A stretch of 64,000 nt of DNA. Origin: Candidatus Eiseniibacteriota bacterium. Its GTDB lineage: Bacteria; Eisenbacteria; RBG-16-71-46; CAIMUX01; VGJL01. The translations under genes were made by a program, and so were the position numbers. The stretch lies in assembly GCA_041946735.1 (NCBI GenBank), contig JBHGAY010000011.1, positions 64,001 through 128,000 of the forward strand, in the 5' to 3' direction. The notes beneath the pieces were generated by a model. That model saw nothing but the letters and a program-made list of their open reading frames with translations. It was not told where the DNA came from and did not search any database. This document shows, in pieces, positions 1,339 through 19,150 of the stretch; position 1 is the stretch's first letter; each line of letters begins with the position of its first letter.

Positions 1339-2127
1339 CTATGTCTCTCCTTCATCCTCGGTGTCGTCGCGCGACCCGAGGTCTTCGGCGATGACGACAA
1401 GGGCGTGCGGCGAGAGGATTCGGACGTGCTCGCGCCCTGCGACGAGAATGCCGCGCTGCTCCCATTCCTTCAGCAGGCGGCTGACGGTGAAGAGTGTCGT
1501 GCCGGAGAGGCGGGCGAGGGTCTCGCGAGAGAGGGGCATGTCGATCCGCACTCCCTTTTCCTCTGCCGCTCTCCGGCCGGAATGACGAACGAGACGCAGA
1601 AGCGTGCGAGCCAGCCGCTGCGCGACCCGTTCGGTCGCTAGCTCCCGATAGCGATCCTCGACCTCGCGAATCCTGTGCAAGAGGATCTCGACCGCGTTGC
1701 GGGCGATCCGCGGGAAGCGTTGAAGGAGCTCCTCGATTGCGGCGCCATCCCACACGAGCGCCTCGCTCTCCTCGACCGCGCGAGCGGAGACCGGGTAGGA
1801 GACCTCGTCGAGGACGGCCGTCAGGGCGAAGATCTCCCCGGGGCCGATCAGGCGGAGGATCACCTCCTGACCGTCGGCGCCGGACTGGATCAGCGAGACC
1901 CGGCCGCGGAGGAGGAGGTGCAGGCGACACGGGCGGTCCCCTTGCTCGAAGAAGCTGCCGCGCCTTGCCGCCACATTGCGGGTCGCCGCTCGCGCGACGG
2001 CCGACTGCTCCGCCGCGGCGAGCCCGCGAAAGAGGGCCGTCCGTCCGAGGATCTCCGTCCAGCGTTCCGCATCCGACGCGCGGCCGGAGTTCCTGTCGCC
2101 CGGACGTCCCGTGCCTCTGCCTGCCAT
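1339..2127 (-). CDS. Crp/Fnr family transcriptional regulator, NnrR-like
   Basis: cNMP-binding domain (FFEQGD...GQEVILRLIGPGEIF), ATERVAQRLAR helix, HTH 'LSGTTLFTVSRLL'. Start could be GTG 2145. Confidence 0.88.
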   Translation of the reverse strand: MAGRGTGRPGDRNSGRASDAERWTEILGRTALFRGLAAAEQSAVARAATRNVAARRGSFFEQGDRPCRLHLLLRGRVSLIQSGADGQEVILRLIGPGEIFALTAVLDEVSYPVSARAVEESEALVWDGAAIEELLQRFPRIARNAVEILLHRIREVEDRYRELATERVAQRLARTLLRLVRHSGRRAAEEKGVRIDMPLSRETLARLSGTTLFTVSRLLKEWEQRGILVAGREHVRILSPHALVVIAEDLGSRDDTEDEGET

Positions 2128-2440
2128 GACTTCCGATGCTGCCACAATTCGGCCGGCCTCGCGCCGCCCTGGTCGATCCGCCTGCCCGGCCGGGTCGGGG
2201 GCGCGACCCTCGCCGCTGGCGCCGGCTCCGACCTTCGCCCGCCTCGGCGGTGTCCGCCTCCGGCTGGTTGACCCGCCTACGGCCGTCCCTTAAGATGGCC
2301 ACGCCGAAATCTTACCCTGAGCGTTCGATCGGGAGTCGAACCCCCGATTCGGGGAACGGTGAATGTAGCTTCGTTCGGGGATGTGGCTGGCAGGGACGAG
2401 TGGGGGGCCCCGCTCGGCCTCCAGCCGAATGAGGTGGACC

Positions 2441-3586
2441 GTGGCTGACACGGAGCGGGTCATCGTCGATCTGCTGCGCAGCTTGCTGTCGCATCCCGGC
2501 GAACGCGACCGCGAACGTTTGGCAGACTCCGCCGTCCTCTACATCCGCGCCTTCACGATGAGCCACCTCCGGCAGCGCCGCTTCGGTTTCGGGGAGAGCT
2601 TCGCCGACGTTGCGACCAGCGCGGCCGGCATCCAGGTGGCGAGGCTTCTGCAGTCCAGCCGCCGGCAGCCGGAGAACGGCGAGGAGCCGCGCGAGGATCT
2701 GGCGAGGCTGAGATCCGCGATGCACAGGCGGCTGATCCAGGAAGCGGCCGCTCCGCGCCTGCCGGCGCGCCGGCGGGCCAGAATCCGCCGCGCCGCGCAG
2801 GCGGTCGCTGCAGGCGCGACGATCCCGGCCGAGCTTCCCGACGACGTCGTCCTGGCCTGCTGGCGATCGATCCTGCGAGGCCTCGCGCATCGCGGGATCA
2901 TCGAGGTCTGGAATCAGGAACACCCGGAGCTCGCGCGACAGCTTCGCGCGCTCAAGCGGATCCTCGCCAAAGGAGAGGGGGTGAGGATTCGCAAAGAGAA
3001 CGCTCGCGGGCAGCTTCTGGTGAGCGACGGCAGCGCGCTTCACCGTCCGTGCATCGACAGAGACGCGCTGCAACGGATGCTGCACCCGATTCCACGCAGC
3101 GTCCCGGATCTCGCCGGTTTGCTCCCCTCGATCCTCGTGCCGTCCGAGATCCACGGGGGCTCGGCGTTCCTGATGGACTTCCTCATCGCATGGGAAGACG
3201 TCCTTCGCCGGGAGGTGCCGCCGGACACCGAGGAGAGCGCGTCGTCCCGCGATGGCGTCCCGATCGAGCGCCTCGCCGGAGAGCTTCCACCGATCCTGCG
3301 CCGCCGCGCGCGCGATCTGCTGCGCGCGGACCAGCGCAAAGGGACGTTCGCCGGCGATGCGGACGACCCCGCGTGCCGCCTGTCCAACGCCTACGTCGAG
3401 ATCTCGGTCGAGATGGTCTCGCGAGATTGCGGAGTGGGCAATCCCGAGTGGTCCCGTCTCTCGCAGAAGAAACTGATCGAGCGCCTTCTCCCGGACGTCG
3501 CGACCGACGGCGTTCTCGCGAGGCACCAGCAGAAGATCGACTACCTCGTTCTGCGCCTGCGCGGGACGATACGGGTCCAGCCATGA
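2441..3586 (+). CDS. Hypothetical helical cytoplasmic protein (possible divergent sigma-like factor)
   Basis: 381-aa ORF, GTG start after GAGGTGG, ATGA-coupled to the next gene. No signal peptide or TM segment. The sigma-like role is inferred from context only. Confidence 0.6.
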   Translation: MADTERVIVDLLRSLLSHPGERDRERLADSAVLYIRAFTMSHLRQRRFGFGESFADVATSAAGIQVARLLQSSRRQPENGEEPREDLARLRSAMHRRLIQEAAAPRLPARRRARIRRAAQAVAAGATIPAELPDDVVLACWRSILRGLAHRGIIEVWNQEHPELARQLRALKRILAKGEGVRIRKENARGQLLVSDGSALHRPCIDRDALQRMLHPIPRSVPDLAGLLPSILVPSEIHGGSAFLMDFLIAWEDVLRREVPPDTEESASSRDGVPIERLAGELPPILRRRARDLLRADQRKGTFAGDADDPACRLSNAYVEISVEMVSRDCGVGNPEWSRLSQKKLIERLLPDVATDGVLARHQQKIDYLVLRLRGTIRVQP

Positions 3587-5814
3587 GCCTGGCCGAGCGG
3601 CCGCGCGAGGAGGCCTACGCGATCCGGGAGCTGCACGAGATCGCGGCCGATCTCGACGAGCTTCTCGCCATCGCGCAGCCACCGCTCGTCACCCTCCACG
3701 CGACCCGGCGCTTCCTCGAAGTGCTGGTTCCGTACGGGTCGAACGGCTGGATCGCCTATGGGGAGCGTCCGACGGTCGCGTTGACGAGATCGCTCGAAAC
3801 GCTCCAGCCGCTCGAAGGGATCCCTCTCGAGGATCTGCAGGCGGTCCGCGCGCTGCTGCAGCAGCTCGCCGACCTCGCTCTCCCGCGCGGCGCCGTGTCG
3901 CCGATGTTCGATCTGCCCGCGGCCGCCCTCCGGTCGCTCGCCATCGTCGAGAATGGGATCGAGAGGCTCACCGCCCTGCTTTCCGGGAAGGAGCCCGATC
4001 CTCAGGCAACGGAGGACCGAGCCGCCGTTCTGCTCGTTCCGGTGGCCGTCGGGCTGCGGGCGGCACGCGTGGCCCATCCCCTCTTTGCCGGCATTCGCGC
4101 GGGCCAGATCGTGAGGCTGCGTGTCGAGGCGGAGATGGGGCGGCGGCGCGCCGGGCCCGACCAGCTCCTCCTCGACGGACGGGCGACCGCGGAGACGCGC
4201 GCGGCGTTCTGCGCCGCGCTGTCCCACTTGGGCCAGCTCTCCGTCCCGGGCGCCCCCCGCCTGGAGCGATGCTGGTTCCGCGCCGCCTGGACTCCGGGCG
4301 ACTGCGATCTGGCGGGACGGTCCGCGAGCCTGCCGTTCCTGCTCGCCGCCGCCGCCGCCCGCGCCGCGCTCGCCCCGGGCAGGTCGGCCCGCGAGACGGT
4401 GGCGGGGACCGCCGTCACTTCCGACCTCGACGGCACCCGCAGCGCGCCCGTCTCCGAGGGCTCGCTTGGTCTGAAGGTGGCCGCCTGTTTCCACGCGTCG
4501 GTCCGCCAGCTTCTCGTGCCGTTCGAGCAGCGACAGCAAGCGCAGGAAGCGCTGCGCGCGCTGGAGGCGAAGCACCCGGAACGCCAGCTCCTCGTGCGCG
4601 GCGTGCGGGACGCGCGAGACGCATGGGGAGATCCGGGCGTGATCCGGACGCGCACGCGCACGGCGGCAGAGGCCTGCTCGACCCTCCTGCATCGATTCGC
4701 CGCGAGCCGGACGTTTGCGGTCGTGGTCATTCTCGCGTTCCTCGTGCTCCTGCTGCTGATATTCCTCGCTCTCCGCTGGACGCACTACAACCCGGTCGCG
4801 CTGGACTGGTCGAAGGGCCGGGATGAGCTGCTGGTCAAGAACCAATACGGCTTCACGGTGCTCGCGCTGCCGATCAGGCACCAGCATCCGAACGAGGTTA
4901 GCCTCTTCGGATATTCGCGAGCCCTGGCGGACCTCGACGGAGACGGAGTCAAAGAAGTGATCGCCATCCACGACGGCCGGGAGGAGGCGTTCTCGGCCCT
5001 GAGCATGTTCGACAGGAAGAAGCAGCCGGTCTGGACCAGGTTCTGCAACGACCTTTCACCCGGCATCGAGCGCAAGGTGGATGGCTTGGCGTGGTTCGCT
5101 TTCCTGCCTCTCGAGCTTGGACCGGGGGAACCGGCGAGGCTCGCCTGCCTGCGCCGCTCACGACAGGGCAGTCTCTCGGTTCTGGAGATCGACGACGCGG
5201 CGACCGGGCAGCTCCTGGGGCGCATGAGCAACATCGGGCACATCGAGGCGATCTACGAGACCGATCTCGACCGAGACGGGCGGAAGGATTTGTGGGCGTG
5301 CGGTACGGACAACGTCACGGGCATGGCGCTTCTCGCCGTGCTCGATCCGGCGGCGTTTCGGATCGAGGAAGGCGCCACCCGTGTCTCGGATCTCCTGGGC
5401 TTGACCGATCCTCGGTCGCTCGGCGCCGGAGTCCTCTCGCTGGTGGAGCTGCCCAAGCTCTCCTACTCGCGATCGGAGAGGGCGCAATGCACGACAGTGC
5501 AGATCGGCGATGACGGTGGAGTGATCGCGGGGAGCGCGGACCCGGATGGTAATTGCCTGTTCCATCTGCGGTTCCCCGACCTTCGAGCCCCGGTCCTCGA
5601 TCATGTGCAAATCACCGATGCTGGACGGAGCATCATTCGGTTCCGGGCCGGGAGAGACGTTCCCCTCGCCGAGTTCGCGGCCGAGGAAGCGGCGATGGCG
5701 CAAGCGGCCCGCATTCTCACGCCGGACGGTTGGCGGCCCTGCCCGGGAGGGGAGGCATCGCAGCCGGCCCCGCGGGAATCGGAGATTTCTGAAATACCTG
5801 CCGGTGGCAGGTAG
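3583..5814 (+). CDS. Membrane protein: cytoplasmic Lon/S16-like protease domain + TM helix + extracellular FG-GAP/VCBS repeats
   Basis: DLAGRSASL (Ser codon 4321)...AVTSDLDG...APVSEGSLGLKVAA (Lys codon 4474)...VRQLLVP resembles Lon_C DGPSAG...TGEI...GG.KEK..AA...VLIP. TM TFAVVVILAFLVLLLLIFLAL at ~4711-4773. DLDGDGVKEVI and DLDRDGRKDLW motifs follow. Confidence 0.72.
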   Translation: MSLAERPREEAYAIRELHEIAADLDELLAIAQPPLVTLHATRRFLEVLVPYGSNGWIAYGERPTVALTRSLETLQPLEGIPLEDLQAVRALLQQLADLALPRGAVSPMFDLPAAALRSLAIVENGIERLTALLSGKEPDPQATEDRAAVLLVPVAVGLRAARVAHPLFAGIRAGQIVRLRVEAEMGRRRAGPDQLLLDGRATAETRAAFCAALSHLGQLSVPGAPRLERCWFRAAWTPGDCDLAGRSASLPFLLAAAAARAALAPGRSARETVAGTAVTSDLDGTRSAPVSEGSLGLKVAACFHASVRQLLVPFEQRQQAQEALRALEAKHPERQLLVRGVRDARDAWGDPGVIRTRTRTAAEACSTLLHRFAASRTFAVVVILAFLVLLLLIFLALRWTHYNPVALDWSKGRDELLVKNQYGFTVLALPIRHQHPNEVSLFGYSRALADLDGDGVKEVIAIHDGREEAFSALSMFDRKKQPVWTRFCNDLSPGIERKVDGLAWFAFLPLELGPGEPARLACLRRSRQGSLSVLEIDDAATGQLLGRMSNIGHIEAIYETDLDRDGRKDLWACGTDNVTGMALLAVLDPAAFRIEEGATRVSDLLGLTDPRSLGAGVLSLVELPKLSYSRSERAQCTTVQIGDDGGVIAGSADPDGNCLFHLRFPDLRAPVLDHVQITDAGRSIIRFRAGRDVPLAEFAAEEAAMAQAARILTPDGWRPCPGGEASQPAPRESEISEIPAGGR

Positions 5815-5892
5815 GACGTCGAAGTGAGGGCGGCTCGGCCAGAAGGCGAGGGGTGGCCGAGCCGGCCGCGAGACGAGTAGGGAGCAGATGAC

Positions 5893-6537
5893 GTGAACCG
5901 TTGCTACAGAGAGAGTTCGATCGAGAGGGTAGCCGGCCGGCTCGCCCCTGGCGGCGATGCGGGCCTCGATCTCCTCGCCCGCTGGGCTGCCGGCGGCCCG
6001 GCTCGCCTGCGGCACGAGCGCGCCGAGTTCGCCGCCCACGTAGCCGCTTGCGCCAGGTGCGGCGGGATCTTCTCGGTCTTCCTCTCGACCGAGCGCTCCC
6101 TTTTGGCCGCCGCCGGGGCTACGAGCCCCGCCCCGCTGAGGCCGCTACCGGTCGTCCTCAGCCTCGCCGCGCCCGCGCAGAGAAGGCGCGGGACCATTCG
6201 TCGAGGGGATGGACTGACGGGGTCGGCGGACGATGCGGCCGTGGAAGCTGCGCGCGACTCGGATCGGCCGTGCTATCAGGTGGCGGCCGATGCGGGGGAC
6301 GCGCAGGACCCGGCAGTCCTGCCCACCATGGCGGAGATCACGCTCACCTCGGAGGACGGGCGCTGGGGCGTCCGGATCAAGCCCGATCCGCAGGGCGAGG
6401 GCGCGATCGCGATCCTCGTGCCGAGGCGGCAGGGAGCCGTCCTCCGATTGGGGGGCGTCGAGCATCTCTTCGATGAAGACGGGATCGCCCACTTGCCGTC
6501 CTCCCCGATCGGCGCCGCGTTTCTCATTCTCTCCTGA
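5893..6537 (+). CDS. Soluble zinc-finger (zf-HC2/ZAS) anti-sigma-like protein with C-terminal beta domain
   Basis: N-terminal Cys plus AEFAAHVAACARC (HxxxCxxC, 6037-6060), no TM helix, GGGAG RBS upstream. Confidence 0.7.
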   Translation: MNRCYRESSIERVAGRLAPGGDAGLDLLARWAAGGPARLRHERAEFAAHVAACARCGGIFSVFLSTERSLLAAAGATSPAPLRPLPVVLSLAAPAQRRRGTIRRGDGLTGSADDAAVEAARDSDRPCYQVAADAGDAQDPAVLPTMAEITLTSEDGRWGVRIKPDPQGEGAIAILVPRRQGAVLRLGGVEHLFDEDGIAHLPSSPIGAAFLILS

Positions 6538-6584
6538 TCCTCGGCGATCCTGCCCGATCCTGGCGCCTCGAGTGGGTCCCGGCT

Positions 6585-6618
6585 AAAGGGACGCCTTTCC
6601 CGAAAGGGACGCCTTTCC
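6585..6618 (+). repeat. Tandem 16-bp direct repeat of a palindromic unit
   Basis: AAAGGGACGCCTTTCC at 6585-6600 and 6603-6618; each copy contains AAAGG-N4-CCTTT. Confidence 0.9.
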
Positions 6619-6624
6619 TTCTGA

Positions 6625-6787
6625 ACGCCCCCTCGGTGGCCGGTAGAGAACAAGAGGAAAGATCCGAGATCACCCGGGGAGTCGACGACGCCGACCGTGG
6701 ACACCGCGACCGTTCCGCCCACAGGCTCCCGGGTCTTTCGGAAGCGCCGCGAGCCTCCCTCGGTTGGCTGACCCCGGGGGAGGCCGT
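6625..6787 (+). ncRNA. 6S RNA-like long hairpin with central bubble
   Basis: Hand pairing: CCCCC 6628-32/GGGGG 6776-80, GGT-GGCCGG 6635-43/TTGGCT-ACC 6764-73, purine-rich bubble ~6649-62, TCCGAGA 6663-69/TTTCGGA 6736-42, ACCCGGG 6672-78/CCCGGGT 6728-34. GGGAG...CGCCCAC...AGGCTCCC motifs recall 6S RNAs; G-U pairs favour the + strand. Confidence 0.5.
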
Positions 6788-6891
6788 CTCTTGCCTTCGT
6801 CCGCCTGCTCGGGCGAAGCTTCGCTCCATCCCTTCCCGCCCCTCTTTGCCAAGGGATAGAATCCGCCGGACCCCGGAGGGAGGAGGCTTCG

Positions 6892-7395
6892 ATGGCAGTG
6901 TCCGAAGTGCGCGACTATCCGTCCGCGCCCGCCTTGGCGGCCGCTTACCGGCAGCATCGCGACTACGCGTGGAAGCGGCTCCTCGAGTTCCTGGGGTCGC
7001 TGCCGGTGGCCGTGGTGCAGCAGCCGAGCCCGGGCGCGGCGGGCAAGAGCATCGCGGACATCCTGCGGCACTCCCTCGGGACGATCGAGTTCTGGATGAG
7101 CGTGCTCGAGGGACGCTCGCACGAGGCGTTCCCGGCCGAGGAGCACTCCGACATCCCGTCGCTCGCGAGGCTTGCGCGGCTCGTAGACGGCCGCCTGCAG
7201 AAGCTGCTTGGCGAAGCGGATCCGGAATGGTTCGGCCGGAGCCACTCCTTCCGCTTCCCGGACGGGCATGAAGAGGATCTCGTCCCTGCCTGGGTCGTCT
7301 TGCACGTTCTCACGCACGAGTACCATCACAAGGGACAGGTCGTCTCGATCGCCCGGTCGCTCGGCTACACGCCTCCCGAAACCGACTTCTTCTGA
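6892..7395 (+). CDS. DinB family protein
   Basis: SIADILRH...W and VLHVLTHEYHHKGQV His motifs; GGAGG RBS. Confidence 0.9.
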   Translation: MAVSEVRDYPSAPALAAAYRQHRDYAWKRLLEFLGSLPVAVVQQPSPGAAGKSIADILRHSLGTIEFWMSVLEGRSHEAFPAEEHSDIPSLARLARLVDGRLQKLLGEADPEWFGRSHSFRFPDGHEEDLVPAWVVLHVLTHEYHHKGQVVSIARSLGYTPPETDFF

Positions 7396-7415
7396 TTCCG
7401 GCGGCGCTGGCGACG

Positions 7416-8279
7416 ATGAGCGTCTTCTTCTTCGCTTCGGATCTTCACGGCCGGCGAGACCGCTACGAGAAGCTGTTCGCCGCAGTGCGAGAGGAAATGC
7501 CGGCGGCGGTGCTGCTCGGCGGCGATCTCCTGCCCGGAGGATCCTCCGTCCTCCGGGCGATCGATCCGGGCCGCGGCGATTTCGTGCAGGACTTCCTGGC
7601 CGCAGAGCTGACCCGCCTCCGGATCGCCCTGCGCGACCGCTACCCGGACGTGCTCCTCATCTTCGGCAACGACGACGCACGCGTGGAAGAGGCGGCGATG
7701 CTCGAGCTCGCGGAGAGCGGCCTTTGGCGCTACGCGCACGGGCGGCGGATCGCTTGCGCCGGATGGAATGTCTACGGCTACTCCTGCGTGCCGCCGACGC
7801 CGTTTCTGCTGAAGGACTGGGAGCGCTACGACGTTTCGCGCTTCGTCGATCCGGGATCGACCTCTCCCGAGGAAGGGATCCACTCCGTTCCCTGCCCCCT
7901 CGTCGAGGTCCGGTACGGCACGATCGCGAAGGACCTCGAGGCGCTCGTGGGAACCGACGATCTCGAGCGCGCGATCCTCCTCTTTCATGCGCCGCCGTAT
8001 CAGACGGCGCTCGACCGGGCTCCGCTCGACGGCCGAGCGATCGACCACGTGCCGCTCGATCCGCACGTCGGCTCGATCGCGATCCGACGCTTCCTCGAGG
8101 AGCGGCAGCCGCGGGTCTCCCTCCACGGACACGTGCACGAGTCGGCACGCCTCACGGGGGAGTGGAAGACGAAGATCGGGGAGACCTGGTGCCTGGGCGG
8201 CGCGCATGACGGGCCCGAGCTGGCTCTCGTGCGGTTCGATCCGGAGCGTCCCGGGGAAGCGGAGCGGGAACTGCTCTAG
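7416..8279 (+). CDS. Calcineurin-like metallophosphoesterase (Icc-related)
   Basis: DLHG, GGDL, GNDD, HAPP, HVGS and HGHVHE motifs. Confidence 0.9.
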   Translation: MSVFFFASDLHGRRDRYEKLFAAVREEMPAAVLLGGDLLPGGSSVLRAIDPGRGDFVQDFLAAELTRLRIALRDRYPDVLLIFGNDDARVEEAAMLELAESGLWRYAHGRRIACAGWNVYGYSCVPPTPFLLKDWERYDVSRFVDPGSTSPEEGIHSVPCPLVEVRYGTIAKDLEALVGTDDLERAILLFHAPPYQTALDRAPLDGRAIDHVPLDPHVGSIAIRRFLEERQPRVSLHGHVHESARLTGEWKTKIGETWCLGGAHDGPELALVRFDPERPGEAERELL

Positions 8280-8349
8280 ACCAGGCGACGCGCGCCGCTA
8301 CGCGGCGGCGATGTGCGCGCGTGCTTCCGGCAGCTTCGCCGGCCGGCGG

Positions 8350-11300
8350 CTACGACGACGCGACGCTTTCCGCCGCCTCTTCCCCCTTCATCCGCAGCCG
8401 CCGCGCCGGATCGGTGATGGCTCCGATCTTCACCGCGAAGCTGCTGCGCGCAGCGATGTCCTCGTCGGTCACGAAGTGGACGTCGAGCAGTCCCTCGGTC
8501 CGGTAGCCGGTGCGGAGATAGTTCAGCTCCGACAGGCAGCGGCTCCATCCGTCCAGCCAGGTCGAAAGCTCGATCCGCTGCCGCTCCGAACCCGCGAAGT
8601 GCAGGACGAGGTCGATGTCGCTCGCAGGCCCGGCGCTCGCGTTCTTCGTGCTCCCGATCAGGTAGAACCCCTTCAGGCCGAACCTCAGCGGATCGGTCTC
8701 GGCCGCGATCTGCTCGGCGAAGCGCAGGCGCCAACGCCAATGCTGCTCGGTGGTGGCGTGGTCCGCGGTGCCGGGGCTCTCCGGCACGCCGACGGCCTCC
8801 TGCGCGGGCATCAACACCCCGACCGCCTCGTCCAGATCGGCGTTCATCAAGACCTTCAGGATCATTCCGCCCGCCGACTGCGGCACGTCGATGACGTGGA
8901 TGACGTCGGAGAGATGCGCGAACTCCGGCAGGAAGTTCGTGAGCAGATTCTCCGACCTGCGGAAGAACGTCTCGTCGAAACGGATTCCGGGATCATCCGG
9001 ATAGAGCGGCAGGTAGCGGATCGACGCCTCGACCAGATCCTGGAAGAAGTGGGTTCCGAAGGAGAGGTCCGGACGGTAGTTCCCCTTCTTGCGCGCAATC
9101 TCGATCAGGACCGCGCAATTGTTGATGTCTGCATAGGTGACATTGACGCCGAGACGGATGTCTCCGCGGCTTCCCCATCGTCCCGGTCCCATCAGGATGA
9201 ACTGCCGCTTCGGGAGCATCTTGTTCAGCCGGCCGACTGCGCGGCCGACCGCGCGCAGCTCGTCCGGATCGGCGATCTCGTTGTACCCTTCCGGATCGAC
9301 ATACACGATGTGCGTGACGTCCGGCACCCGCCCGTTCGACACGTAACGCTTCGCCGAGAAGAGGACGCGATTCTCCGGAATGTCCCGCGGAATCGGCGCC
9401 GGCTGAGTCGCCGCCCCGCTGCTTTGCGGCCGGCACTGGAGCAGAAACAGCTGCTTGCCGTTGGAAGCGAACTCGATGTCGACCGGCGAGCCGATCGCGC
9501 GATGCAGGACCTCGAGGATCGCCTTGACCTGGCGGATGAACGGCGTCTCGCGGATCAGCCCCTCGAACGTCACGACGAGCTTCTCGTTTTGTAGATTCAC
9601 CTGCCGCCCGATCGGCGGATGCACGTGATCGCGCTCGTAGATCGAGACGAGATGGTGGATTCCCGGGACCTCGTCGCCATGGTTGCGAAAGACGTCGACC
9701 GCCTCGATCGTCTCGAACGTCCCTTCTCGGAGATTGAGAACGTCCATCTTCTTCGGGGAGTACTTCGCGATCTCGTCCGGCGTGACGTTGACGCGCAGGC
9801 CGGGCTGGCCGGGCGCGAGCAGGACCGGATAGTCGTCCTTCAGGCGGTCGACGGCGCGGCTGCCGAGCCCCGTCACGAGGCGTACCAGACCATCCTCGCG
9901 TTGGATGCGGCTGGACCAACGGAACTCGTTCCGGCTGAAGGCGACCCCCGAGAAGGCGGGGAAGTAGTAGTCGCCGACGCGGCAGCCGACCACCTCCTGA
10001 ATCAAGATCCCCATCTCCTCGTAGACGTCCAACAGCCCGCGCTCGGCGCGGTACTCGATCGGGTCGGGACCGAAGATCGACGCATACACCTCGGCGATCG
10101 CGTCCATCAACGCGGTCAGGCGCTCGCGCTTCGTCCCCTGGTTCGGAAGGAAGATGCTCTTGTACTTTCCGGAGAAGGCGGCGCCGAAGCGATCCTCGAG
10201 CAAGCTCGAGCTTCGGACGATGAGCGGAGTCTGCTCGAAGTCGTCGAGCACCTGCGACAGGGCGCGCACCATCTGCGGGGAGAAGCGGGAGTTCTTGAAC
10301 ACCTGGACGATGTGCGGGTACTCGTGCCGCACCTCGTCGATCTCGGCGTACTTGTGGTTGTAGATGTCCTCGAGCTCGTTGTAGCGGATGAAGTCGAGAA
10401 TCGAGTCGGACGTCATGTACCACGTCTTCGGCACCCGGATCTCGCCGAGATCCGGCACCGTCGCGGCCGCCTTGCGCAGGATCTGGCTGGCGACGAACAG
10501 GCCGGCCGCCTTCCCCCCGAGCTTCCCGTGACTGGTCGGCGGAAACACCAGGTGCTCCACGATCTCGAAGAAGTCATCGATGTCGAGGAATCGCTTCGCC
10601 ATTTCGACGAACTGCGGCTGTTCGGAGAAGAAGTGGCCGATCAGCGAGACTCGGAGCCCTTTCCGGGCCGCCGGGGAGATCTCGACCGCTTCGGGACCGA
10701 TGTGGTGGTAGCGGCGGATCGCCTCCGCGATCTCGTCGAGTCCGGAATCCGGGTTCCCGATGGTCGTCACGAGAAAACGGGCCTTGTCCTCCTTGATCCA
10801 CGATTGGATGCACGCGAGGATCTCGTCGTTGCTCAGGTACTGTCCCGCGATCCGGAAAGTCTCCTCGGTGATGTCCCGTTCCCATTCGGACCCCAGGCGG
10901 CGATGCGGTCGGTTGTCCTCGACCGCCGCGTCCTCGTCCTCGTCCTGGCCGGACAGATCGTGCAGGATGCTCACCGCTTCCTGCACGCCGATCCAGCCCA
11001 GGTGGTTGATCATCTTCCTCGAGATGCGGATCAGCAGCTCGTTGTCGGTGCGCCGGAGGAAGTCGAGGACGATGCGCCATGGCTCCGCGCGGCTCTCGAG
11101 CGAGCCCCGCGCCTCCTCCAGGTTGCGGAACGCGCTGCGCAGCTTGCGGTGCTCGATGTGGTGGCCGATCCGGTCGGCGATGTTGTCGAGCATCTTCCGC
11201 TCTTCCTGCAGGAACGGCCCTCCGTCGGATCGGACCGTCATCTCCGTGTAGACGACGTCGATGCGCCCGACCTTCTCGCCGTCGACGAGGATCGGCGCGG

Positions 11301-11550
11301 ACTGCACCCAGGGGCTCTCCTGGAAGTTCGGGCAGACGACGACGGTGTCGCGGTAGACGATGCGCGCGCGGCAGAGGCTCGGATACTGGAGGCCTGACGG
11401 GATCGACCGGAGGACGCCGGTCAGCACCTCCTCGAGCGGCACTTCGGTCTGGCTCAGCACTTCGTCCACCCTGTACAGGCAGTCGAGCTCCTTCGCGCGT
11501 TCCTGAAGGACGCGGAGGATCGGATCCATCGGAGTTTCGGGCGCTGTCAC
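8350..11550 (-). CDS. PPDK_N (ATP-grasp) domain protein with N-terminal GAF-like and C-terminal nucleotidyltransferase domains
   Basis: LGGKAAGL, IVRSSSLLED, FSGKYKS, PVDIEFA, LLQCRPQ; GRWGS...SFGTHFF; C-terminal YLIGSTKNA...SDIDL (GS...DxD). Start GTG 11550 or ATG 11529. Confidence 0.85.
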   Translation of the reverse strand: MTAPETPMDPILRVLQERAKELDCLYRVDEVLSQTEVPLEEVLTGVLRSIPSGLQYPSLCRARIVYRDTVVVCPNFQESPWVQSAPILVDGEKVGRIDVVYTEMTVRSDGGPFLQEERKMLDNIADRIGHHIEHRKLRSAFRNLEEARGSLESRAEPWRIVLDFLRRTDNELLIRISRKMINHLGWIGVQEAVSILHDLSGQDEDEDAAVEDNRPHRRLGSEWERDITEETFRIAGQYLSNDEILACIQSWIKEDKARFLVTTIGNPDSGLDEIAEAIRRYHHIGPEAVEISPAARKGLRVSLIGHFFSEQPQFVEMAKRFLDIDDFFEIVEHLVFPPTSHGKLGGKAAGLFVASQILRKAAATVPDLGEIRVPKTWYMTSDSILDFIRYNELEDIYNHKYAEIDEVRHEYPHIVQVFKNSRFSPQMVRALSQVLDDFEQTPLIVRSSSLLEDRFGAAFSGKYKSIFLPNQGTKRERLTALMDAIAEVYASIFGPDPIEYRAERGLLDVYEEMGILIQEVVGCRVGDYYFPAFSGVAFSRNEFRWSSRIQREDGLVRLVTGLGSRAVDRLKDDYPVLLAPGQPGLRVNVTPDEIAKYSPKKMDVLNLREGTFETIEAVDVFRNHGDEVPGIHHLVSIYERDHVHPPIGRQVNLQNEKLVVTFEGLIRETPFIRQVKAILEVLHRAIGSPVDIEFASNGKQLFLLQCRPQSSGAATQPAPIPRDIPENRVLFSAKRYVSNGRVPDVTHIVYVDPEGYNEIADPDELRAVGRAVGRLNKMLPKRQFILMGPGRWGSRGDIRLGVNVTYADINNCAVLIEIARKKGNYRPDLSFGTHFFQDLVEASIRYLPLYPDDPGIRFDETFFRRSENLLTNFLPEFAHLSDVIHVIDVPQSAGGMILKVLMNADLDEAVGVLMPAQEAVGVPESPGTADHATTEQHWRWRLRFAEQIAAETDPLRFGLKGFYLIGSTKNASAGPASDIDLVLHFAGSERQRIELSTWLDGWSRCLSELNYLRTGYRTEGLLDVHFVTDEDIAARSSFAVKIGAITDPARRLRMKGEEAAESVASS

Positions 11551-11610
11551 TTCCGGTTCCCCCTGCCTGGCGATCCACCGCCGCCGGCGGTCGCCGCGAT
11601 TCGCCGTCCT

Positions 11611-13359
11611 CTACGACTCCAATTCCGGATGGACGATGACGCCGCGCCGCGTCCGGCCGTCCACCCGGATGTGGAGCGGCTCCCGGGAACGGACGTGACG
11701 GACGAACTCGGTCTCGGCGACGATCTCTTGCCTTGCGAGCCAGGCCCAGTCGATCGGCCTGGGGTCGGTGTGGCGGACCGAGAAGTAGTACACCTGGAAG
11801 CTCGTGATGTTGTGAAAGAAGTGCGAGCCCTGGCTCGCGTCGGAGTTGATGTGCGGCAGGCTCGACTCGACGATCGCCTTCGCTCCCGCGATCTGCGACC
11901 AGGTGACCGGGATACCGAGCCAGGGGTCGGAGGTGCCCCATCGGCCGAAGCCGATCAGCAGGTACGGGGTTCGCGCGGCCGCGAGGCGATGGTCGATCTC
12001 TTCGATCTGGCCCGCGATGGTGGTCGTGTCCTTCGTGTCGAACCTGTCCGGTTTCACGTAGACGACGTCACGGATCACGTCGAGCGTTCCGTTTCCGAGC
12101 GCCGACTCGGATGCGGCGAGCACCCGGGGACCGTTCATCGCCTCCTCGTCGACCGTCACCTCCTCCGCCGCCACGACCAGCGGGCGCACCTGGAGGAATC
12201 CGAGGCGGCCCGCGTACGGCCGGCGGCGGATCGTCATGGCGAACTCGATCTCGACCGGCGCGCCGATCTCTTCCTGTGACATCTCGAGCAGGGAACGGAT
12301 CGTCGAGGTGAGCGGCAGGACCTCCGTGATCAGCAAGGGCGCGAAGCTCAGGACGCGGGGACCGTACCCGGCCATCCCCGTCGAGAGCCGGTCGGACTGG
12401 ACGTCGTACGTCGAGACGAGGGGGGCGAGAACGCCGTCCTCCTCCGCCGTGTCGATCCCGGACTCTACGAGATACTCGATCTCGTTGATCGGGTCGTAGG
12501 TGGGGATTCTCCCCATCTGGACGGCCCAGAACTTCGTCTGGCTCTGCTTGAGCAGATCGCGAATCGAGTTGTACGGGGGGTTCGTCCGCGGATAGGCGGG
12601 CGAAAAGGTCCACGCCACCCCGCCGTCGACGATCGTCTTGCCGAGGCCCAGCGCGAGGCTTGCCACGCCGTCCTCGGGCGCCGCGTGCCCCACCGGGTAG
12701 TAGTTATACGAGCGCGCGACTCCCGAGAGGTCCGGATAGAAGCGATCGCCGTGCCTCTCCCCGACGACCTCCTGGAGCACGACCGCCATCTTCTCCTCGG
12801 CGCTCGACTGCTGGGCCGCCTTGGCGTACGCCTTCGCCTCACGGAAGAAGGTGGAGGCGTAGACATACTTGATCGCTTCGGTGAGACGCCGGAACCGCGT
12901 CTCCGAGTCGATCGCGTTGTTCGGGATCATCTTCGTCGCGTAGACGCCGGCGAAGGGGCGGTACTGAGCGTCCTCGAGGAGGCTCGAGGACCGGATCGCC
13001 AGGGGTTGGCGGAGCGAATCCATCAGCGCCTTCAGATCGCCGACGATCGAGGCGGATAGGCTTCCGTGTTGAAACGCGAGAGCGATCCGGTCGTCCGGCT
13101 CGTCGGAGAGGGCGATCTCGCGGAGGCGATTTTCCTCGAGGAACGCATCGAAGACGTCGGTGGCGATGACGATCGTCTTCGGGATCGCGACCTCGATCTC
13201 GGGGAACAGACGGCTCGCCTTCCCCTCGGTCAACATCCGCTTGACGACCGCGAGGCCGGTCGCCTTCCCGCCGAGATCCCCCGTTCCGATGATGGTGAAG
13301 TCCTCGCGCGAGTCGAGGAAGTGGCGATCGAATGGGGGATAGAGGTTCGCCTTGCTCAT
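11611..13359 (-). CDS. PPDK_N / PEP-synthase-like ATP-grasp protein lacking the pyruvate-binding barrel
   Basis: LGGKATGL, AIRSSSLLED, FAGVYAT, LGLGKTIVDG, EIEFA, FLQVRPL, GRWGTSDPWLG, SQGSHFF. Confidence 0.85.
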   Translation of the reverse strand: MSKANLYPPFDRHFLDSREDFTIIGTGDLGGKATGLAVVKRMLTEGKASRLFPEIEVAIPKTIVIATDVFDAFLEENRLREIALSDEPDDRIALAFQHGSLSASIVGDLKALMDSLRQPLAIRSSSLLEDAQYRPFAGVYATKMIPNNAIDSETRFRRLTEAIKYVYASTFFREAKAYAKAAQQSSAEEKMAVVLQEVVGERHGDRFYPDLSGVARSYNYYPVGHAAPEDGVASLALGLGKTIVDGGVAWTFSPAYPRTNPPYNSIRDLLKQSQTKFWAVQMGRIPTYDPINEIEYLVESGIDTAEEDGVLAPLVSTYDVQSDRLSTGMAGYGPRVLSFAPLLITEVLPLTSTIRSLLEMSQEEIGAPVEIEFAMTIRRRPYAGRLGFLQVRPLVVAAEEVTVDEEAMNGPRVLAASESALGNGTLDVIRDVVYVKPDRFDTKDTTTIAGQIEEIDHRLAAARTPYLLIGFGRWGTSDPWLGIPVTWSQIAGAKAIVESSLPHINSDASQGSHFFHNITSFQVYYFSVRHTDPRPIDWAWLARQEIVAETEFVRHVRSREPLHIRVDGRTRRGVIVHPELES

Positions 13360-13453
13360 TCTGCATCCCCGGTCCTGCGCCACGGCCGGCGCGGTTATGG
13401 GAGCAGCGGCGCCCGCCGCGGCGGTGCGGCGGGCGCCACCAGGCGATCGGAAC

Positions 13454-15862: not shown

Positions 15863-17671
15863 TCAGTCCCCGCAGTGCACGTAGACGTCCGGGCCCCCGT
15901 TCGTGTCGCTCGATTCCAAAGCTACCGGGCTCTCGAAGGCGATGGCCTGGCCGTCCCCGGAAATCGAAGGGGCGGTCGAGGGGCCCGGGTTCGCGATCGA
16001 GCCGCCTCCCGTGAAAACGGAGACCCGCCGTGTTTCGCTGGCCTGCCGGTCGTGGATGTAGACGTCGTCGGCGCCGTTGGTGTCGTCGGGATCGAGGGCG
16101 ACGGCGGTGGTGAACGCGACAGAGCGGCCATCCGCCGAGATCGAAGGAGCGGTCGAAGGGCCTGGGTTCGCGATCGAACCGCCGCCGGTGAAGATGGAGA
16201 CTCGCCGAGTCTCGCCGGCCTCGCGGTCGTGGACGTAGACGTCATCGGCGCCGTTGGTGTCGTTGGATTCGAAAGCGACGGGGGTGGTGAAGGCGACGAA
16301 ACGGCCGTCTGCCGAGACGGACGGCTGGCGCGATCCACCCTCGTTCGCGATCGAGCCGCCTCCGGTGAAGATCGAGACGCGCGTCGTCTGGTTCGTGCCG
16401 GCGTCATGGACGTAGACGTCCTCCGCGCCGTTGGTGTCGTCGTTGACGAGCGCCGCGCTCGTGACGAAGGCGACGACCTGGCCGTCCCGCGAGATGGAAG
16501 GGGAATGCGCGCCCGGCTCGTCCGCGCCGCTGCCGCTCCCCGTCCGGATGGAGACGCGGAACGTGCGGTTCTCGTCGCGGTCGTGGACGTAGACGTCGTC
16601 GCCGCCGTTGTTGTCGTTCGACTCGAAGGCCACCGGGGTCGTGAAGGCCACCACCCTGCCGTCCGCCGAGACCGCCGCCTCCCGAGACCCTGACTGATCG
16701 GCGATCGATCCGTTGCCGGTGAAGACCGACACACGGATCGTTTCGTTCTCGTCGCGGTCGTGGACGTAGACGTCGTCGCCGCCGTTGGTGTCGTCCGGAT
16801 CGAACGCCACCGGAGTCGTGAAGGCGATCACCTTGCCGTCCCCGGAGATCGAAGGCTCGTGCGAGCCCGCCTGGTCGGCGATCGAGCCGCCGCCCGTGAA
16901 GATCGAGACGCGGCGCGTCTCGTCCTCGACGAGATCGTGGATATAGACGTCGTCGCCGCCGTTGGTGTCGTTCGACTCGAACGCCACGGGCGTCGTGAAG
17001 GCGACGACGCGGCACGCGGGGGAGATCGAAGGCTCGTGCGAGCCCGCCTGGTCGGCGATCGAGCCGTTGCCCGTGAAGATGGAGACGCGCCGCGTCTCGT
17101 TCTCGCAGACGGAAGGATCGCAGGGATCGTCGTCGACGCCGCCCGGAGGCGGAGGGGGGGGCGGAGGAGCCGCGCCCGTCACCTCGAAGCTCCGCCGCTG
17201 GCTCCAGAAGTAGTATTCCCCGGGTTTGTCCGAGGTGTGCGTGACCCGGATCTGCCAGTCGACGATCTCTCCTGGCTGCAGGGCGTTGCCTCCCCACTGG
17301 TTCGGCGGCGGAAACCGGTACTCGACTCGGAACGGCTCCGTACGGGGCAGGCCGCCGGGAGTGAAGGTGAATCCGGCCGGCGGGACCTCCGTGTAGAGAA
17401 TGTGCTGCGTGTTCTGCAGGCTCGGGCGGCGACCCCATTCGACCTGGAGCGCCGTGACGGTCGTCTGCTTCGGGTCGATCTCCGCGACGACGCGCGGGCC
17501 GCCGCTGGTGGATCGCTCGAGTTCGTCGAGCAGCGTGAAGGCCGGCCGATCGGAGGGGCATCCGGCGAGCACGACGAGAAGCGCGACGGCGGCGGCGAGG
17601 GTGAGCGGGCGTGGCGGCTTGCCTGGGAGCGCGTGCGATGGCTTCCGGGCCTTCCCTGGTCGGATCGACAT
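15863..17671 (-). CDS. Lipoprotein with 7-bladed TolB-like/PD40 beta-propeller
   Basis: Signal peptide with lipobox VLAGC, a beta domain, a poly-Pro linker, then seven 59-aa repeats (RVSIFTG...PSISADGR.VAF...DTNG.DDVYVHD). Confidence 0.85.
   Translation of the reverse strand: MSIRPGKARKPSHALPGKPPRPLTLAAAVALLVVLAGCPSDRPAFTLLDELERSTSGGPRVVAEIDPKQTTVTALQVEWGRRPSLQNTQHILYTEVPPAGFTFTPGGLPRTEPFRVEYRFPPPNQWGGNALQPGEIVDWQIRVTHTSDKPGEYYFWSQRRSFEVTGAAPPPPPPPPGGVDDDPCDPSVCENETRRVSIFTGNGSIADQAGSHEPSISPACRVVAFTTPVAFESNDTNGGDDVYIHDLVEDETRRVSIFTGGGSIADQAGSHEPSISGDGKVIAFTTPVAFDPDDTNGGDDVYVHDRDENETIRVSVFTGNGSIADQSGSREAAVSADGRVVAFTTPVAFESNDNNGGDDVYVHDRDENRTFRVSIRTGSGSGADEPGAHSPSISRDGQVVAFVTSAALVNDDTNGAEDVYVHDAGTNQTTRVSIFTGGGSIANEGGSRQPSVSADGRFVAFTTPVAFESNDTNGADDVYVHDREAGETRRVSIFTGGGSIANPGPSTAPSISADGRSVAFTTAVALDPDDTNGADDVYIHDRQASETRRVSVFTGGGSIANPGPSTAPSISGDGQAIAFESPVALESSDTNGGPDVYVHCGD
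15866..17104 (-). repeat. Seven ~177-bp intragenic tandem repeats (propeller blades)
   Basis: 59-aa units highly similar at protein and DNA level. Confidence 0.9.
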
Positions 17672-18016
17672 GGATCCCTCCTGTCTGACGAGCGTGTCGA
17701 GCGGCGCGAATGCGCGTGGGCATGCGCGTGCGAATGCGAATGCGCATGCGTCTGGCGGTGTGTGTGTGTGATGCGAACGCCGCCCCGACGCGAATGAGCG
17801 AACCCGTCTTCCGGGACACCGGATTCGAGGAACGAAGGAGTATCCAGACGGCGGGCGGCGGGGGCAATGTGAATCGATCGTGCCGAACGGATTTCGGGGA
17901 GAGGGTCGGATCCGGTATACTCATTCCGGTTCGTTCCCCGGGCGGCGCCGCGACGGCCGGGTTCTCCCCCACGCCCCGCTCGCTCGGACTCGCCTTTTCG
18001 ACTCTTTGGAGGGACC

Positions 18017-19150
18017 ATGCGAATCCAACCCGGTGCGTTACGGCTCCCGCCCCTTCTGGCGCTGGGGCCGCTTCTCCTGGCGCTTGCCGCCTCCCCGGCG
18101 ATCTCGTCGACCCTGACTCTTCAGCCGCTGCTCGAATCCGACACGGATCTGCTGCGCGTCGCTCCTCAAGAGGACGGAACGGCGGTCGTGCTCCGCGAGC
18201 GCGAGGTGGGGCTGGCGAGCCAGGGACCGTTCGTCGTTCGAGCCTCGGCGGGCGCGCAGCAGACCCTCACCATCGCCGACGAGGGCGGATGGATCGGTAT
18301 CGCGGACCATCGGCCAGGAGCGGCCGACTTCGCGCCGGTCGCGTCGTTCACGCTCCTCGCGCCGGATGGCAGGACGGCGTGGAGCCTCGGTGAGACCGAG
18401 GACGTCGCCTTCCTGATCAGCGGGCAAGGCCGGGTCGCCGGCCTGCAGTTGAACATCAACGTCCCCGATCGCAACCGCCTGCGCTTCTATGGAGACGGCG
18501 GCGAAGTGGTCGCCGATCTGCCTCTGCCGTATCTCGAGGGAGCCTCGTTCGATCCGTCCGGGCGGAGGCTGTTCGCTCTCAGCTCGCTCGACGGCCTGCA
18601 TGCCTTCACGGTCGACGGCGAGGAGCTGTGGAGCCTTCCCGGTGCGCGGATGTTCGCTCCCTCCGCGGGAGGGGACCTCGTCGCCGCGATCGCCGGCGAT
18701 GCTCTCGTCGTCGTTCGGGACGGCCGCCCCGACGCCCCGATCCCGCTCGACGGGCTGCTGGTGCGCCGGGTCGCCGTCGCGCCGGACGGCGGCCGGCTTG
18801 CGATCGCCGACAAGCATGAGATCCGCGTCTTCTCCGTGGGCGCCCGGATTCCCGAGTGGAACGTCGACCTCACGAGCGAGCGGCTCGCCGTGACCTCGCT
18901 CGATCTCGCGGATGGCCGCGGATGGTTGCTCGCCGGTCTCGCGCGCGACCTCGGTGAACAGGTGCCGATCCTCGAGCGCCATCCGAGCGGCGAGGTGCGC
19001 GCCTACGACGCGGACGGACGACTCGAGCACTCCGCGACGATGCCGTTCCCGATCTGGAACATCTGGACCCCGACGGCGAGGATCGATCGCTCCGGGCATG
19101 CGGCCACCATCACGACCCGGCGTTCCGTATACCGGGTCGCATTGCCGTAG
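18017..19150 (+). CDS. Secreted beta-propeller (WD40-like) hypothetical protein
   Basis: Signal peptide; FDPSGRRL, VAPDGGRLA and IDRSG turn motifs; GGAGG RBS. Confidence 0.65.
   Translation: MRIQPGALRLPPLLALGPLLLALAASPAISSTLTLQPLLESDTDLLRVAPQEDGTAVVLREREVGLASQGPFVVRASAGAQQTLTIADEGGWIGIADHRPGAADFAPVASFTLLAPDGRTAWSLGETEDVAFLISGQGRVAGLQLNINVPDRNRLRFYGDGGEVVADLPLPYLEGASFDPSGRRLFALSSLDGLHAFTVDGEELWSLPGARMFAPSAGGDLVAAIAGDALVVVRDGRPDAPIPLDGLLVRRVAVAPDGGRLAIADKHEIRVFSVGARIPEWNVDLTSERLAVTSLDLADGRGWLLAGLARDLGEQVPILERHPSGEVRAYDADGRLEHSATMPFPIWNIWTPTARIDRSGHAATITTRRSVYRVALP

Follow-up and report, generated by a model that had tools for sequence, protein, structure and literature searches.

We analysed a stretch of 64,000 nucleotides (nt) of a Candidatus Eiseniibacteriota genome (GenBank assembly GCA_041946735.1, contig JBHGAY010000011.1, positions 64,001 to 128,000 of the forward strand; hereafter the window), in which three adjacent genes, named g1, g2 and g3 here, form a cassette. 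A preliminary description of this DNA had proposed that the cassette is a transmembrane signalling system made of a membrane-anchored Lon-type protease receptor, a soluble anti-sigma factor and a sigma-like partner. The region has a G+C content of ~68%. g1 (2441..3586) encodes the sigma-like protein, g2 (3583..5814) a predicted single-pass membrane receptor of 743 amino acids (aa) with a cytoplasmic Lon-type protease domain, and g3 (5893..6537) a soluble anti-sigma-like protein of 214 aa. All three genes lie on the plus strand, as do the features described within them, and the TGA stop codon of g1 (3584-3586) overlaps the ATG start codon of g2 (3583-3585) as ATGA; the common orientation and the coupling of the first two genes (3583-3586) had both been described correctly.

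The start of g1 in the public protein record is the GTG at 2441, and an ATG at 2429 (giving 385 aa) or at 2381 is possible as well. g3 starts with the GTG at 5893, with GGGAG ~8 nt 5' of the start. A candidate sigma-70-like promoter (TTGACC, 17 nt spacer, TAAGAT; 2268..2296, plus strand) is found upstream of g1, with one site compared to 0.1 expected in shuffled sequences, as a match to the consensus only. No terminator-like sites were found on the plus strand within the cassette. Searches of g1, g2 and g3 against Pfam and NCBIfam yielded nothing except a weak FG-GAP signal in g2. The features that the preliminary description had reported as observed are all present in the sequence where it had placed them.

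A membrane receptor with a Lon-type protease domain

The AlphaFold model of g2 (predicted local distance difference test, pLDDT, of 84.6) is helical in residues 14-133, forms a mixed domain in residues 138-371 and continues with one long helix (376-399) and a beta-rich part (405-720). The N-terminal helical domain (residues 14-133; 3622..3981) is built of five helices without an alpha/beta core. No AAA+ ATPase module was detected in g2 by Pfam or in the model, and the earlier statement that such a module is missing holds, with helices only at residues 14-133 and no Pfam ATPase. Because there is no AAA+ module N-terminal to the protease, g2 as modelled is not a LonA or LonB.

The mixed domain (residues 138-371; 3994..4695) resembles the Lon (S16) proteolytic domain. 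In a VIA-align search of the g2 model that covered 48,161 chains, it superposed on LonA 4ypm_A with Z 21.0 and a root mean square deviation (rmsd) of 2.2 over 184 residues and on 1rr9_A with Z 20.9; other Lon, RadA, ComM and BrxL Lon-like domains gave Z 16.8-20.9. Foldseek matched the model to the Escherichia coli Lon proteolytic domain 3wu6_A (E 8.5e-9, TM 0.83, rmsd 3.2), and the g2 profile found the A. fulgidus Lon proteolytic domain 1z0b_A in the PDB (E 8.7e-5). The putative nucleophile Ser247 (codon TCC, 4321..4323) aligns with the Ser of GdSAS of A. fulgidus Lon, and the putative general base Lys298 (codon AAG, 4474..4476) with the Lys of its 'KIEAA' stretch. A Lon/S16-like domain with a Ser at 4321 and a Lys at 4474 had been claimed from the letters of the sequence, and a Lon_C fold with an aligned Ser-Lys dyad had been predicted from it; the two codons lie at exactly these coordinates, and the results of Foldseek, VIA-align and the profile agree with the prediction. 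Both residues are invariant in 28/28 g2-like proteins, a set made up of 11 orthologues, 12 paralogues and 5 Bacteroidota sequences. In a 12-sequence alignment of g2, the invariant positions were G245, S247, L250, A255, A277, T279, V290, K298, A301, V312, P313 and Q316. Two relatives of g2 exceed the Pfam Lon_C cut-off of 21.1 bits, at loci L095 (29.7 bits) and L132 (26.0 bits).

The Lon-like domain might be a non-catalytic scaffold, as in RadA/Sms or ComM, that sequesters and releases g3 by changes in conformation. RadA and ComM Lon-like domains score nearly as high as true Lon (Z 17.6-18.9), and the g2 protein of the window has SAS where most of its relatives have SAG and lacks a Pfam Lon_C match. 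However, Ser247 and Lys298 are retained without exception across three clades at ~30% identity, and G245, T279 and V312-P313-x-x-Q316 do not vary among the 12 aligned sequences either, which is the pattern expected of an active site. We therefore regard a mere scaffold as very improbable and treat the domain as a predicted protease.

The sole strong hydrophobic segment of g2 (Kyte-Doolittle 3.54 at residues 379-397) falls within a transmembrane helix predicted at residues 376-399 (4708..4779) by hydropathy and the model, with an Arg-rich stretch before the helix. Behind it follows a predicted extracytoplasmic beta-propeller (residues 405-720; 4795..5742). Residues ~385-705 matched propellers of the integrin-alpha, WD40 and designed types with Z 12-13.4 (VIA-align), and two DxDxDG motifs were located at residues 450 and 561, consistent with the single membrane helix and extracellular DxDxDG repeats noted before. 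The score of FG-GAP_3 on g2 of the window was 18.5 bits, under the cut-off of 26.9. We place the propeller outside the cell because in 11/12 Bacteroidota proteins described below a homologous propeller stands C-terminal to an HxxxCxxC motif and one membrane helix. In public databases the Bacteroidota relatives of g2 are labelled 'hypothetical protein', with FG-GAP marks only. Judged from the model, g2 is most likely a membrane receptor with a periplasmic propeller and a cytoplasmic, ATPase-less Lon-type domain that is predicted to cleave proteins by means of Ser247 and Lys298.

A soluble zinc anti-sigma-like protein

The zinc-site region of g3 (5902..6060) comprises C4 and H49-x3-C53-x2-C56, and no membrane segment was detected in the protein (maximum Kyte-Doolittle 1.57). 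Of the 11 g3 orthologues, 10 retain HxxxCxxC and also have C or H at position 4. The earlier claim of an HxxxCxxC zinc finger on a protein that lacks a transmembrane helix is borne out by this conservation and by the hydropathy profile. Among the orthologues, 2/11 match zf-HC2 (PF13490) at E up to 10, with a best value of 0.091; Bacteroidota relatives reach E 0.0014 and 0.0059, still under the Pfam cut-off of 22.2 bits. In a protein atlas, zf-HC2 occurs in 35% of the members of one cluster near g3, and 10 of the 30 atlas clusters nearest to g3 belong to the zf-HC2-bearing set, both of which we take as leads only. The g3 profile found nothing under E 0.8 among PDB sequences.

The zinc-site region is joined by a linker to a beta-rich C-terminal domain (approximately residues 146-214; 6328..6534) with the conserved block 'VLTLxSxDGRYLVRIFP..GxGATAIL'. 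Within the linker, which is otherwise variable, the motif [L/V/W]AA is invariant in 20/20 g3-like proteins from three clades. Its Ala131-Ala132 (6283..6288) are a candidate cleavage site and C-degron.

A divergent sigma-like protein

In a library of 1.84 billion representative proteins, the g1 profile finds 131 relatives with E values of 1e-3 or lower, 45 of which reach 1e-30 or lower. The g1 alignment contains 106 sequences, fragments under ~300 aa and one repetitive 1006-aa match having been left out. g1 had been described as an unassigned helical protein, and indeed no Pfam or NCBIfam family matched it; it has no membrane segment (maximum Kyte-Doolittle 1.27), and its profile found nothing under E 0.8 among PDB sequences. 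The protein atlas offers weak leads from g1 to Sigma70_r2 clusters.

The g1 model built with this alignment (pLDDT 91.4, predicted template modelling score 0.76) points to a sigma region-2 fold in the N-terminal domain (residues ~5-165, with an insertion; 2441..2923). Sigma factors made up 19 of the first 26 rows of the VIA-align result (Z 6.6-9.1), all on residues ~3-180, with typical superpositions at rmsd 2.6-3.3 over 85-97 residues. The Z values were 9.1 for ShbA, 8.7 for SigB, 8.4 for sigma-32 and 8.2 for SigW; sigma-2 of SigC (2o7g_B) gave Z 8.4 and rmsd 2.6 over 88 residues, and SigE of the SigE-ChrR complex (2z2s_E) Z 8.3 and rmsd 2.8 over 85 residues at 19% identity, where Z 8-9 is often reached by chance for helical models. 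Because the individual Z values are middling, the argument rests on the consistency of the matches, which together with the gene context favours a true sigma-2 fold in the modelled protein.

g1-like proteins are 340-385 aa long, much longer than extracytoplasmic function (ECF) sigma factors, and g1 has an extra middle domain. The C-terminal four-helix domain (residues 279-385; 3263..3583), in which Y372, L373 and R375 are invariant or nearly so, has a fold that is not settled. Lambda Q (7ubm_Q) matches it best, with Z 8.5 and rmsd 3.0 for 101 residues.

g1 is predicted to bind the zinc-site region of g3

The pairing of gene 1 with gene 3 had been put forward as a check by complex modelling, and the model passed its controls: the median score for g1:g3 was 0.78 (runs 0.80, 0.78 and 0.74), compared with 0.00 for the best of three controls. 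The partner pLDDT was at least 63, and the runs shared at least 50% of their contacts. The mark applied is reached by 116/157 solved complexes and 2/215 mismatched pairs, which is a rough calibration since own alignments were used. The predicted contacts on the g3 side fall on residues 3-12 and 52-74, which cover the zinc site and the following helix; those on the g1 side fall on residues 5-8, 37-49, 105-110, 139-147, 190-193, 204-208 and 243. As a prediction and not a measurement, the complex model supports binding of g1 by g3.

A natural variant agrees with this pairing. Genome G008, which is 99% complete, encodes an intact g2 with the Ser and Lys residues (locus L011, 5980-8163, minus strand) next to a g3 without the zinc region (5508-5966, minus strand). 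Only the first helix, the AA motif and the C-domain of g3 remain there, and HxxxCxxC is missing. In G008 the g1 profile (E up to 0.01) detected no g1, neither beside g2 nor elsewhere. The joint loss of g1 and of the zinc domain in this single genome agrees with g1 and g3 being partners.

Conservation of the cassette

g2 homologues at 30-35% identity were found in 11/41 related genomes and full-length g2 orthologues (E < 1e-250) in 11/206 genomes of the phylum, the window's own genome being included in both counts. All 11 genomes with an orthologue belong to one order and to four families. In the 11 fetched loci, tblastn detected g2 in 11/11, g1 in 9/11 and g3 in 10/11. A divergent open reading frame (ORF) occupies the place of g1 in L019, g1 is missing from L011, and L012, the locus without g3, stops at a contig edge. 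Five flanking genes of the window were searched for in the same way and none was found in any of the 11 loci. A search for related loci with the g2 sequence alone gave no relative; with P0064 it gave a single locus, which stops at a contig edge, and the g2 profile (A1, E up to 0.01) had no match in the genome concerned, a negative that carries no weight.

An all-against-all comparison of the ORFs of 10 loci and the window, from which L012 was left out as too short, gave the same picture. Only three clusters were common to more than three loci, namely g2 (11/11), g3 (11/11) and g1 (9/11). One g3 homologue has the source name Candidatus Eisenbacteria. The trio has been conserved together at ~30% identity while all flanks differ, which is more than chance would produce. 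The gene neighbourhood, which the preliminary description had suggested comparing, is thus syntenic in other genomes of one order.

Paralogous receptors stand next to canonical ECF sigma genes

The same order also has paralogues of the receptor, proteins of 650-970 aa that the g2 profile picked up, and we fetched 12 of their loci. Using a profile of the ECF sigma factors of the window's genome, we found an ECF sigma ORF in 9/12 of them. In 6/12 (L128, L132, L133, L134, L137 and L139) this ORF lies directly downstream of the receptor gene on the same strand, and in 4/12 (L128, L132, L137 and L139) a g3-like HxxxCxxC protein follows. Sigma70_r2 and/or r4_2 scored above the Pfam cut-off in 6/6 ECF candidates scanned. 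Lon_C matched the paralogous receptor of L132 with 26.0 bits and those of L137 and L139 with 20.5 and 17.7 bits, under the cut-off of 21.1; the L128 receptor gave no Pfam match to Lon_C. From the ECF sigma ORFs at paralogous receptors it follows that, in these sister cassettes, a canonical ECF sigma takes the place that g1 has in the window.

In the sister cassettes L128, L132, L137 and L139 the Lon receptor gene comes first, the canonical ECF sigma gene second and the gene for the g3-like protein third; L133, L134 and L136 may be placed beside them. In L133, the ECF sigma and TPR repeats share an open frame of 625 aa (stop to stop), which may represent either a fusion protein or two genes in frame with each other.

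g1-like proteins in Bacteroidota

A wider family of g1-like proteins (~340 aa) was found in 56 of 401 sampled genomes, with up to three or more copies per genome. The sample is the phylum around a Chlorobiaceae genome, i.e. Bacteroidota, and the neighbourhoods of g1-like genes were read in 20 fetched loci. In 11/20 loci the g1-like gene is followed by one for a protein of 466-804 aa that begins with an HxxxCxxC region and matches the g2 propeller in its C-terminal part; in one more (L089) the neighbour has the same HxxxCxxC build without a propeller match. A g3-like protein and a Lon receptor, in the order g1-g3-g2, accompany the g1-like gene in 3/20 loci (four cassettes), and in 1/20 there is a g3-like protein only. 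The neighbourhood is unclear in 4/20. In L099, one of the three loci with a Lon receptor, the ORF at the place of g3 encodes 277 aa without a match to the g3-type profile A3 and without HxxxCxxC.

In 11 of the 12 Bacteroidota HxxxCxxC proteins there is a single hydropathy peak, and it lies 71-89 residues beyond the motif. FG-GAP_3 was above its cut-off in 5/6 scanned HxxxCxxC proteins whose propeller matches the g2 profile (A1), and the L089 protein gave no FG-GAP match. Thus, g1-like proteins accompany classical single-pass zinc anti-sigma architectures in Bacteroidota. From these sequences, the same sensor propeller appears to be used either on the anti-sigma factor itself or on the Lon receptor.

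Locus L086 (genome G351) contains two divergent g1-g3-g2 cassettes on opposite strands, at 1757-6038 (minus) and 8247-12420 (plus), separated by two minus-strand ORFs (6109-7455 and 7707-8204). A protein of ~1220 aa is often encoded just upstream of the g1-like gene in the Bacteroidota loci (L083-L100), for example in L094, L097 and L100.

Proposed signalling mechanism

We consider it probable that the three genes constitute a transmembrane proteolytic signalling module in which sigma-like g1 is released from the soluble anti-sigma-like g3. The in-silico basis of this reading is made up of the folds, the catalytic pair, the topology, the synteny, the interface predicted for g1:g3 and the canonical ECF sigmas coupled to paralogous receptors. 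Those in-silico checks from the preliminary description that were run came out as predicted or nearly so, and the interpretation is supported by them; none of the outcomes named there as refuting it was observed.

The closest characterised logic is that of CalpL-CalpT-CalpS. In the available text of the CalpL study (10.1101/2024.05.08.593097), CalpL consists of an N-domain, a Lon domain (S154/K195) and a SAVED domain, and a C-terminal CalpT fragment docks on the CalpL N-domain. Cleavage occurs in trans within filaments induced by cyclic tetra-adenylate (cA4), and CCaCalpL cuts CalpT between A204 and A205 of LAAA. The same text describes the new ...LAA end of CalpT as a C-degron and states that cleavage alone does not free CalpS (10.1101/2024.05.08.593097). 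On the predictions made for g1, g2 and g3, the two systems share an ATP-independent Ser-Lys Lon domain after a helical N-domain, a partner of anti-sigma type with two domains joined by a linker, and a sigma-type output. The LAA|A site and ...LAA degron of CalpT, as given in that text, match [L/V/W]AA of g3.

The components differ in other respects. CalpL (7qda_A) superposes on the g2 Lon domain with Z 11.8 and rmsd 2.5 over 135 residues, whereas g2 is closer to LonA (Z 21). CalpL has a SAVED domain that binds cA4 and belongs to type III CRISPR, whereas g2 has a membrane helix and a propeller and no CRISPR context. CalpT combines, in the available account, a MazF-like part with DUF2080, whereas g3 is an HxxxCxxC protein with another C-domain, and CalpS is ECF-like whereas g1 is unrecognisable by sequence. 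On the models, g2 would be CalpL-like in its proposed working and is not a member of the CalpL family.

We propose the following sequence of events. In the resting state, the zinc domain of g3 (C4, H49, C53 and C56) would hold g1, and the C-terminal beta domain of g3 probably docks on g2, for which the g2 N-domain is the proposed site by analogy with CalpT. A signal at the propeller would switch the protease on, perhaps by bringing receptors together, as CalpL acts in trans in filaments. The g2 protease would then cut the g3 linker at the invariant [L/V/W]AA, after Ala132. The zinc-domain fragment would thereby end in ...VAA, a ClpXP-type C-degron, and be degraded. g1 would be set free to act on transcription, possibly by binding RNA polymerase. 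Cleavage after Ala132 and decay of the fragment are proposed because [L/V/W]AA resembles the mapped CalpT site.

g3 could also be an adaptor or inhibitor and not the substrate, with g2 cutting g1, another protein or itself, for degradation or maturation. Our analysis does not identify which protein g2 cuts, and the C-domain of g3 travels with g2 in G008, where g1 is missing, which indicates a tie between g3 and g2 that does not depend on g1. On the other hand, [L/V/W]AA is found in the linker of all 20 g3-like proteins and matches the mapped CalpT site and degron, and two domains joined by a variable linker fit a cleavable tether. An adaptor role is therefore a rather improbable alternative to g3 as the substrate.

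Several results weigh against the proposed release of a sigma-like g1 from a zinc anti-sigma factor by a Lon-type protease. For g2 of the window, Pfam Lon_C (PF05362) gave no match at E up to 1, and because the protein is below Pfam Lon_C its family assignment rests on the profile, the structure and the relatives. zf-HC2 scored 8.4 bits (E 3.2) on g3 of the window, under its cut-off; of the earlier expectation of a zf-HC2 domain, the C/H...HxxxCxxC site kept in 10/11 orthologues stands, but the Pfam match does not. The spacing from C4 to H49 of g3 exceeds that of classical zinc-binding anti-sigma (ZAS) domains. For g1, 0/131 relatives carried a Sigma70 Pfam domain at E up to 0.01, and no Sigma70 family was among the 25 listed of 77 families for the 106 g1 members at E up to 10. 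A Sigma70_r2 search of the genome marked 23 places, of which g1 was not one. With hhalign, g1 compared with nine ECF sigmas of the same genome gave a probability of 1% and E 0.05, the single alignment offered matching the register of regions 2.1-2.2. Comparison of the same ECF alignment with the wider g1-like profile A5 gave a probability of 0.4% and E 0.15. Foldseek on the g1 model had a best E of 0.12 and no match at E up to 0.001. There was no sigma region 4 for the C-domain of g1 among the matches listed, lambda Q being better. The Z values of the sigma-2 matches, within the range of chance for helical models, and the single genome behind the co-loss of g1 and the zinc domain count on the same side. 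The sigma-like partner proposed earlier is thus upheld in part: the g1 model points to a region-2 fold, but no sequence method places g1 in the sigma-70 family and region 4 was not seen.

These results also bear on the possibility that the module is as proposed while g1 is a non-sigma regulator of transcription that binds RNA polymerase, antiterminator-like or appropriator-like, with a sigma-2-like bundle. In addition to the missing sequence tie to sigma-70, the best match of its C-domain to lambda Q (Z 8.5) and its length of 340-385 aa with an extra middle domain would suit such a protein. However, sigma region-2 domains dominate the structural matches (19 of the first 26 rows), and g1-like genes take the place of canonical ECF sigmas in paralogous cassettes. 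They also pair with classical ZAS-type membrane anti-sigma architectures in Bacteroidota, and the predicted contact with g3 covers helices like those of regions 2.1/2.2. We consider a non-sigma g1 unlikely and favour a divergent sigma-like factor.

Relation to other systems and significance

Known routes from the envelope to sigma factors are the cutting of a membrane anti-sigma factor by site-1 and site-2 proteases, partner switching and phosphorylation. In the RseA pathway of E. coli, DegS, RseP and ClpXP act on the anti-sigma factor, and the RseP product, which ends in ...VAA, is passed to ClpXP. The proposed module resembles this pathway in that an outside signal leads to the destruction of an anti-sigma factor, and the ...VAA end resembles that proposed for g3. 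In contrast, RseA spans the membrane and is cut by two proteases in turn, whereas g3 is soluble and the protease would be part of the receptor. With classical single-pass ZAS proteins (zf-HC2) the cassette shares HxxxCxxC, a putative partner of sigma type and, in Bacteroidota, the same FG-GAP propeller family; the difference is that g2 and g3 of the window divide sensor and zinc domain between two proteins, with a Lon domain between the membrane and the anti-sigma factor.

Lon proteins that are AAA-less or membrane-bound (MtaLonC 4fw9, archaeal LonB 3k1j, 1z0e, and the PDZ-Lon_C type of Bacillus subtilis YlbL) have the Lon_C fold and the Ser-Lys dyad in common with g2, and some are membrane-anchored. 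VIA-align scored g2 at Z 16.9-19.9 against 4fw9_A and 3k1j_B and at 17.4 against 1z0e_A. Unlike the proposed receptor, these are general or quality-control proteases, and we found none described with a sigma/anti-sigma pair. The available text of a 2008 survey of Lon_C architectures (PMC2605481) contains none with an FG-GAP propeller. In the main text of an ECF re-classification paper (PMC7826278), neither 'Lon' nor 'protease' occurs as a whole word, and its supplements may list such neighbourhoods. Our literature search did not turn up any account of a membrane receptor of Lon type that has sigma/anti-sigma partners.

The proposed module is of a known kind, namely proteolytic sigma-factor control with CalpL-like logic, and what is new is its input and architecture. 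It is nearly as likely as not, and we suggest it tentatively, that the cassette represents an undescribed class, 'receptor Lon proteases', in which an extracytoplasmic propeller would directly control a cytoplasmic, ATP-independent Lon domain that cuts a soluble zinc anti-sigma factor at a conserved LAA site and exposes a ClpXP-type degron. This class would come in at least two flavours, one with canonical ECF sigmas and one, to which the window belongs, with a new family of very divergent g1-like sigmas (sigma-2 fold, middle domain, Q-like C-domain).

In such a system proteolysis would be the work of the receptor itself and would act on a soluble anti-sigma factor; the logic of CalpL, known from the sensing of CRISPR second messengers, would here operate at the cell surface. 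Should this hold, transmembrane signalling in bacteria would gain a new kind of output domain, and cleavage of the CalpL type with a subsequent degron step would seem to be in general regulatory use and not a speciality of CRISPR. It would also point to an unannotated sigma-like family, with 131 clusters in the representative library and members in 56/401 sampled Bacteroidota genomes. As a compact three-gene module with sharp predictions (Ser247, Lys298 and Ala131-Ala132), the cassette is directly testable, and it could serve as a programmable switch from membrane to transcription.

Neighbouring genes

The flanks of the cassette encode NnrS, a Crp/Fnr regulator, DinB, a metallophosphoesterase and two PPDK_N proteins, and further genes for glutamate dehydrogenase, elongation factor P (EF-P) and propeller-type exported proteins. 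There were no cas or defence genes within 25 kb of the cassette and no cas genes among 13 flanking ORFs; the lack of cas genes had been stated for the locus before. PADLOC gave no match for g1, g2 or g3.

These neighbours bear on the idea that the cassette serves in conflict or in defence against phages, as a membrane-bound counterpart of CalpL through which phage attack would be detected at the envelope. CalpL-CalpT-CalpS is antiviral according to the available account, and the spread of the cassette is patchy (11/206 genomes of the phylum), with several copies per genome in some Bacteroidota. However, PADLOC recognised none of the three proteins, the surroundings are housekeeping genes (Crp/Fnr, NnrS, DinB, glutamate dehydrogenase, EF-P) free of cas and defence genes, and an FG-GAP propeller on a protein of anti-sigma type is an ordinary architecture for envelope sensing. 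A defence function has very little probability in our view, and we retain the reading as a signalling module.

Upstream of g1 and on the opposite strand, the window encodes an NnrS-family membrane protein (2-1093, minus) and a Crp/Fnr-type regulator (1339-2145, minus); neither gene is kept beside the cassette in other genomes. Further along the window, two adjacent genes (8350-11550 and 11611-13383, both minus) encode proteins of 1066 and 590 aa, each with a PPDK_N domain (pyruvate phosphate dikinase, AMP/ATP-binding) as the sole recognised domain. Exported-looking proteins are encoded at 15866-17920 (minus), 18958-20787 (plus) and 22836-24737 (minus), and the domains found among them are PD40, DUF1573, LVIVD and FlgD_ig, the last being a C-terminal domain of the type IX secretion system (T9SS) type.

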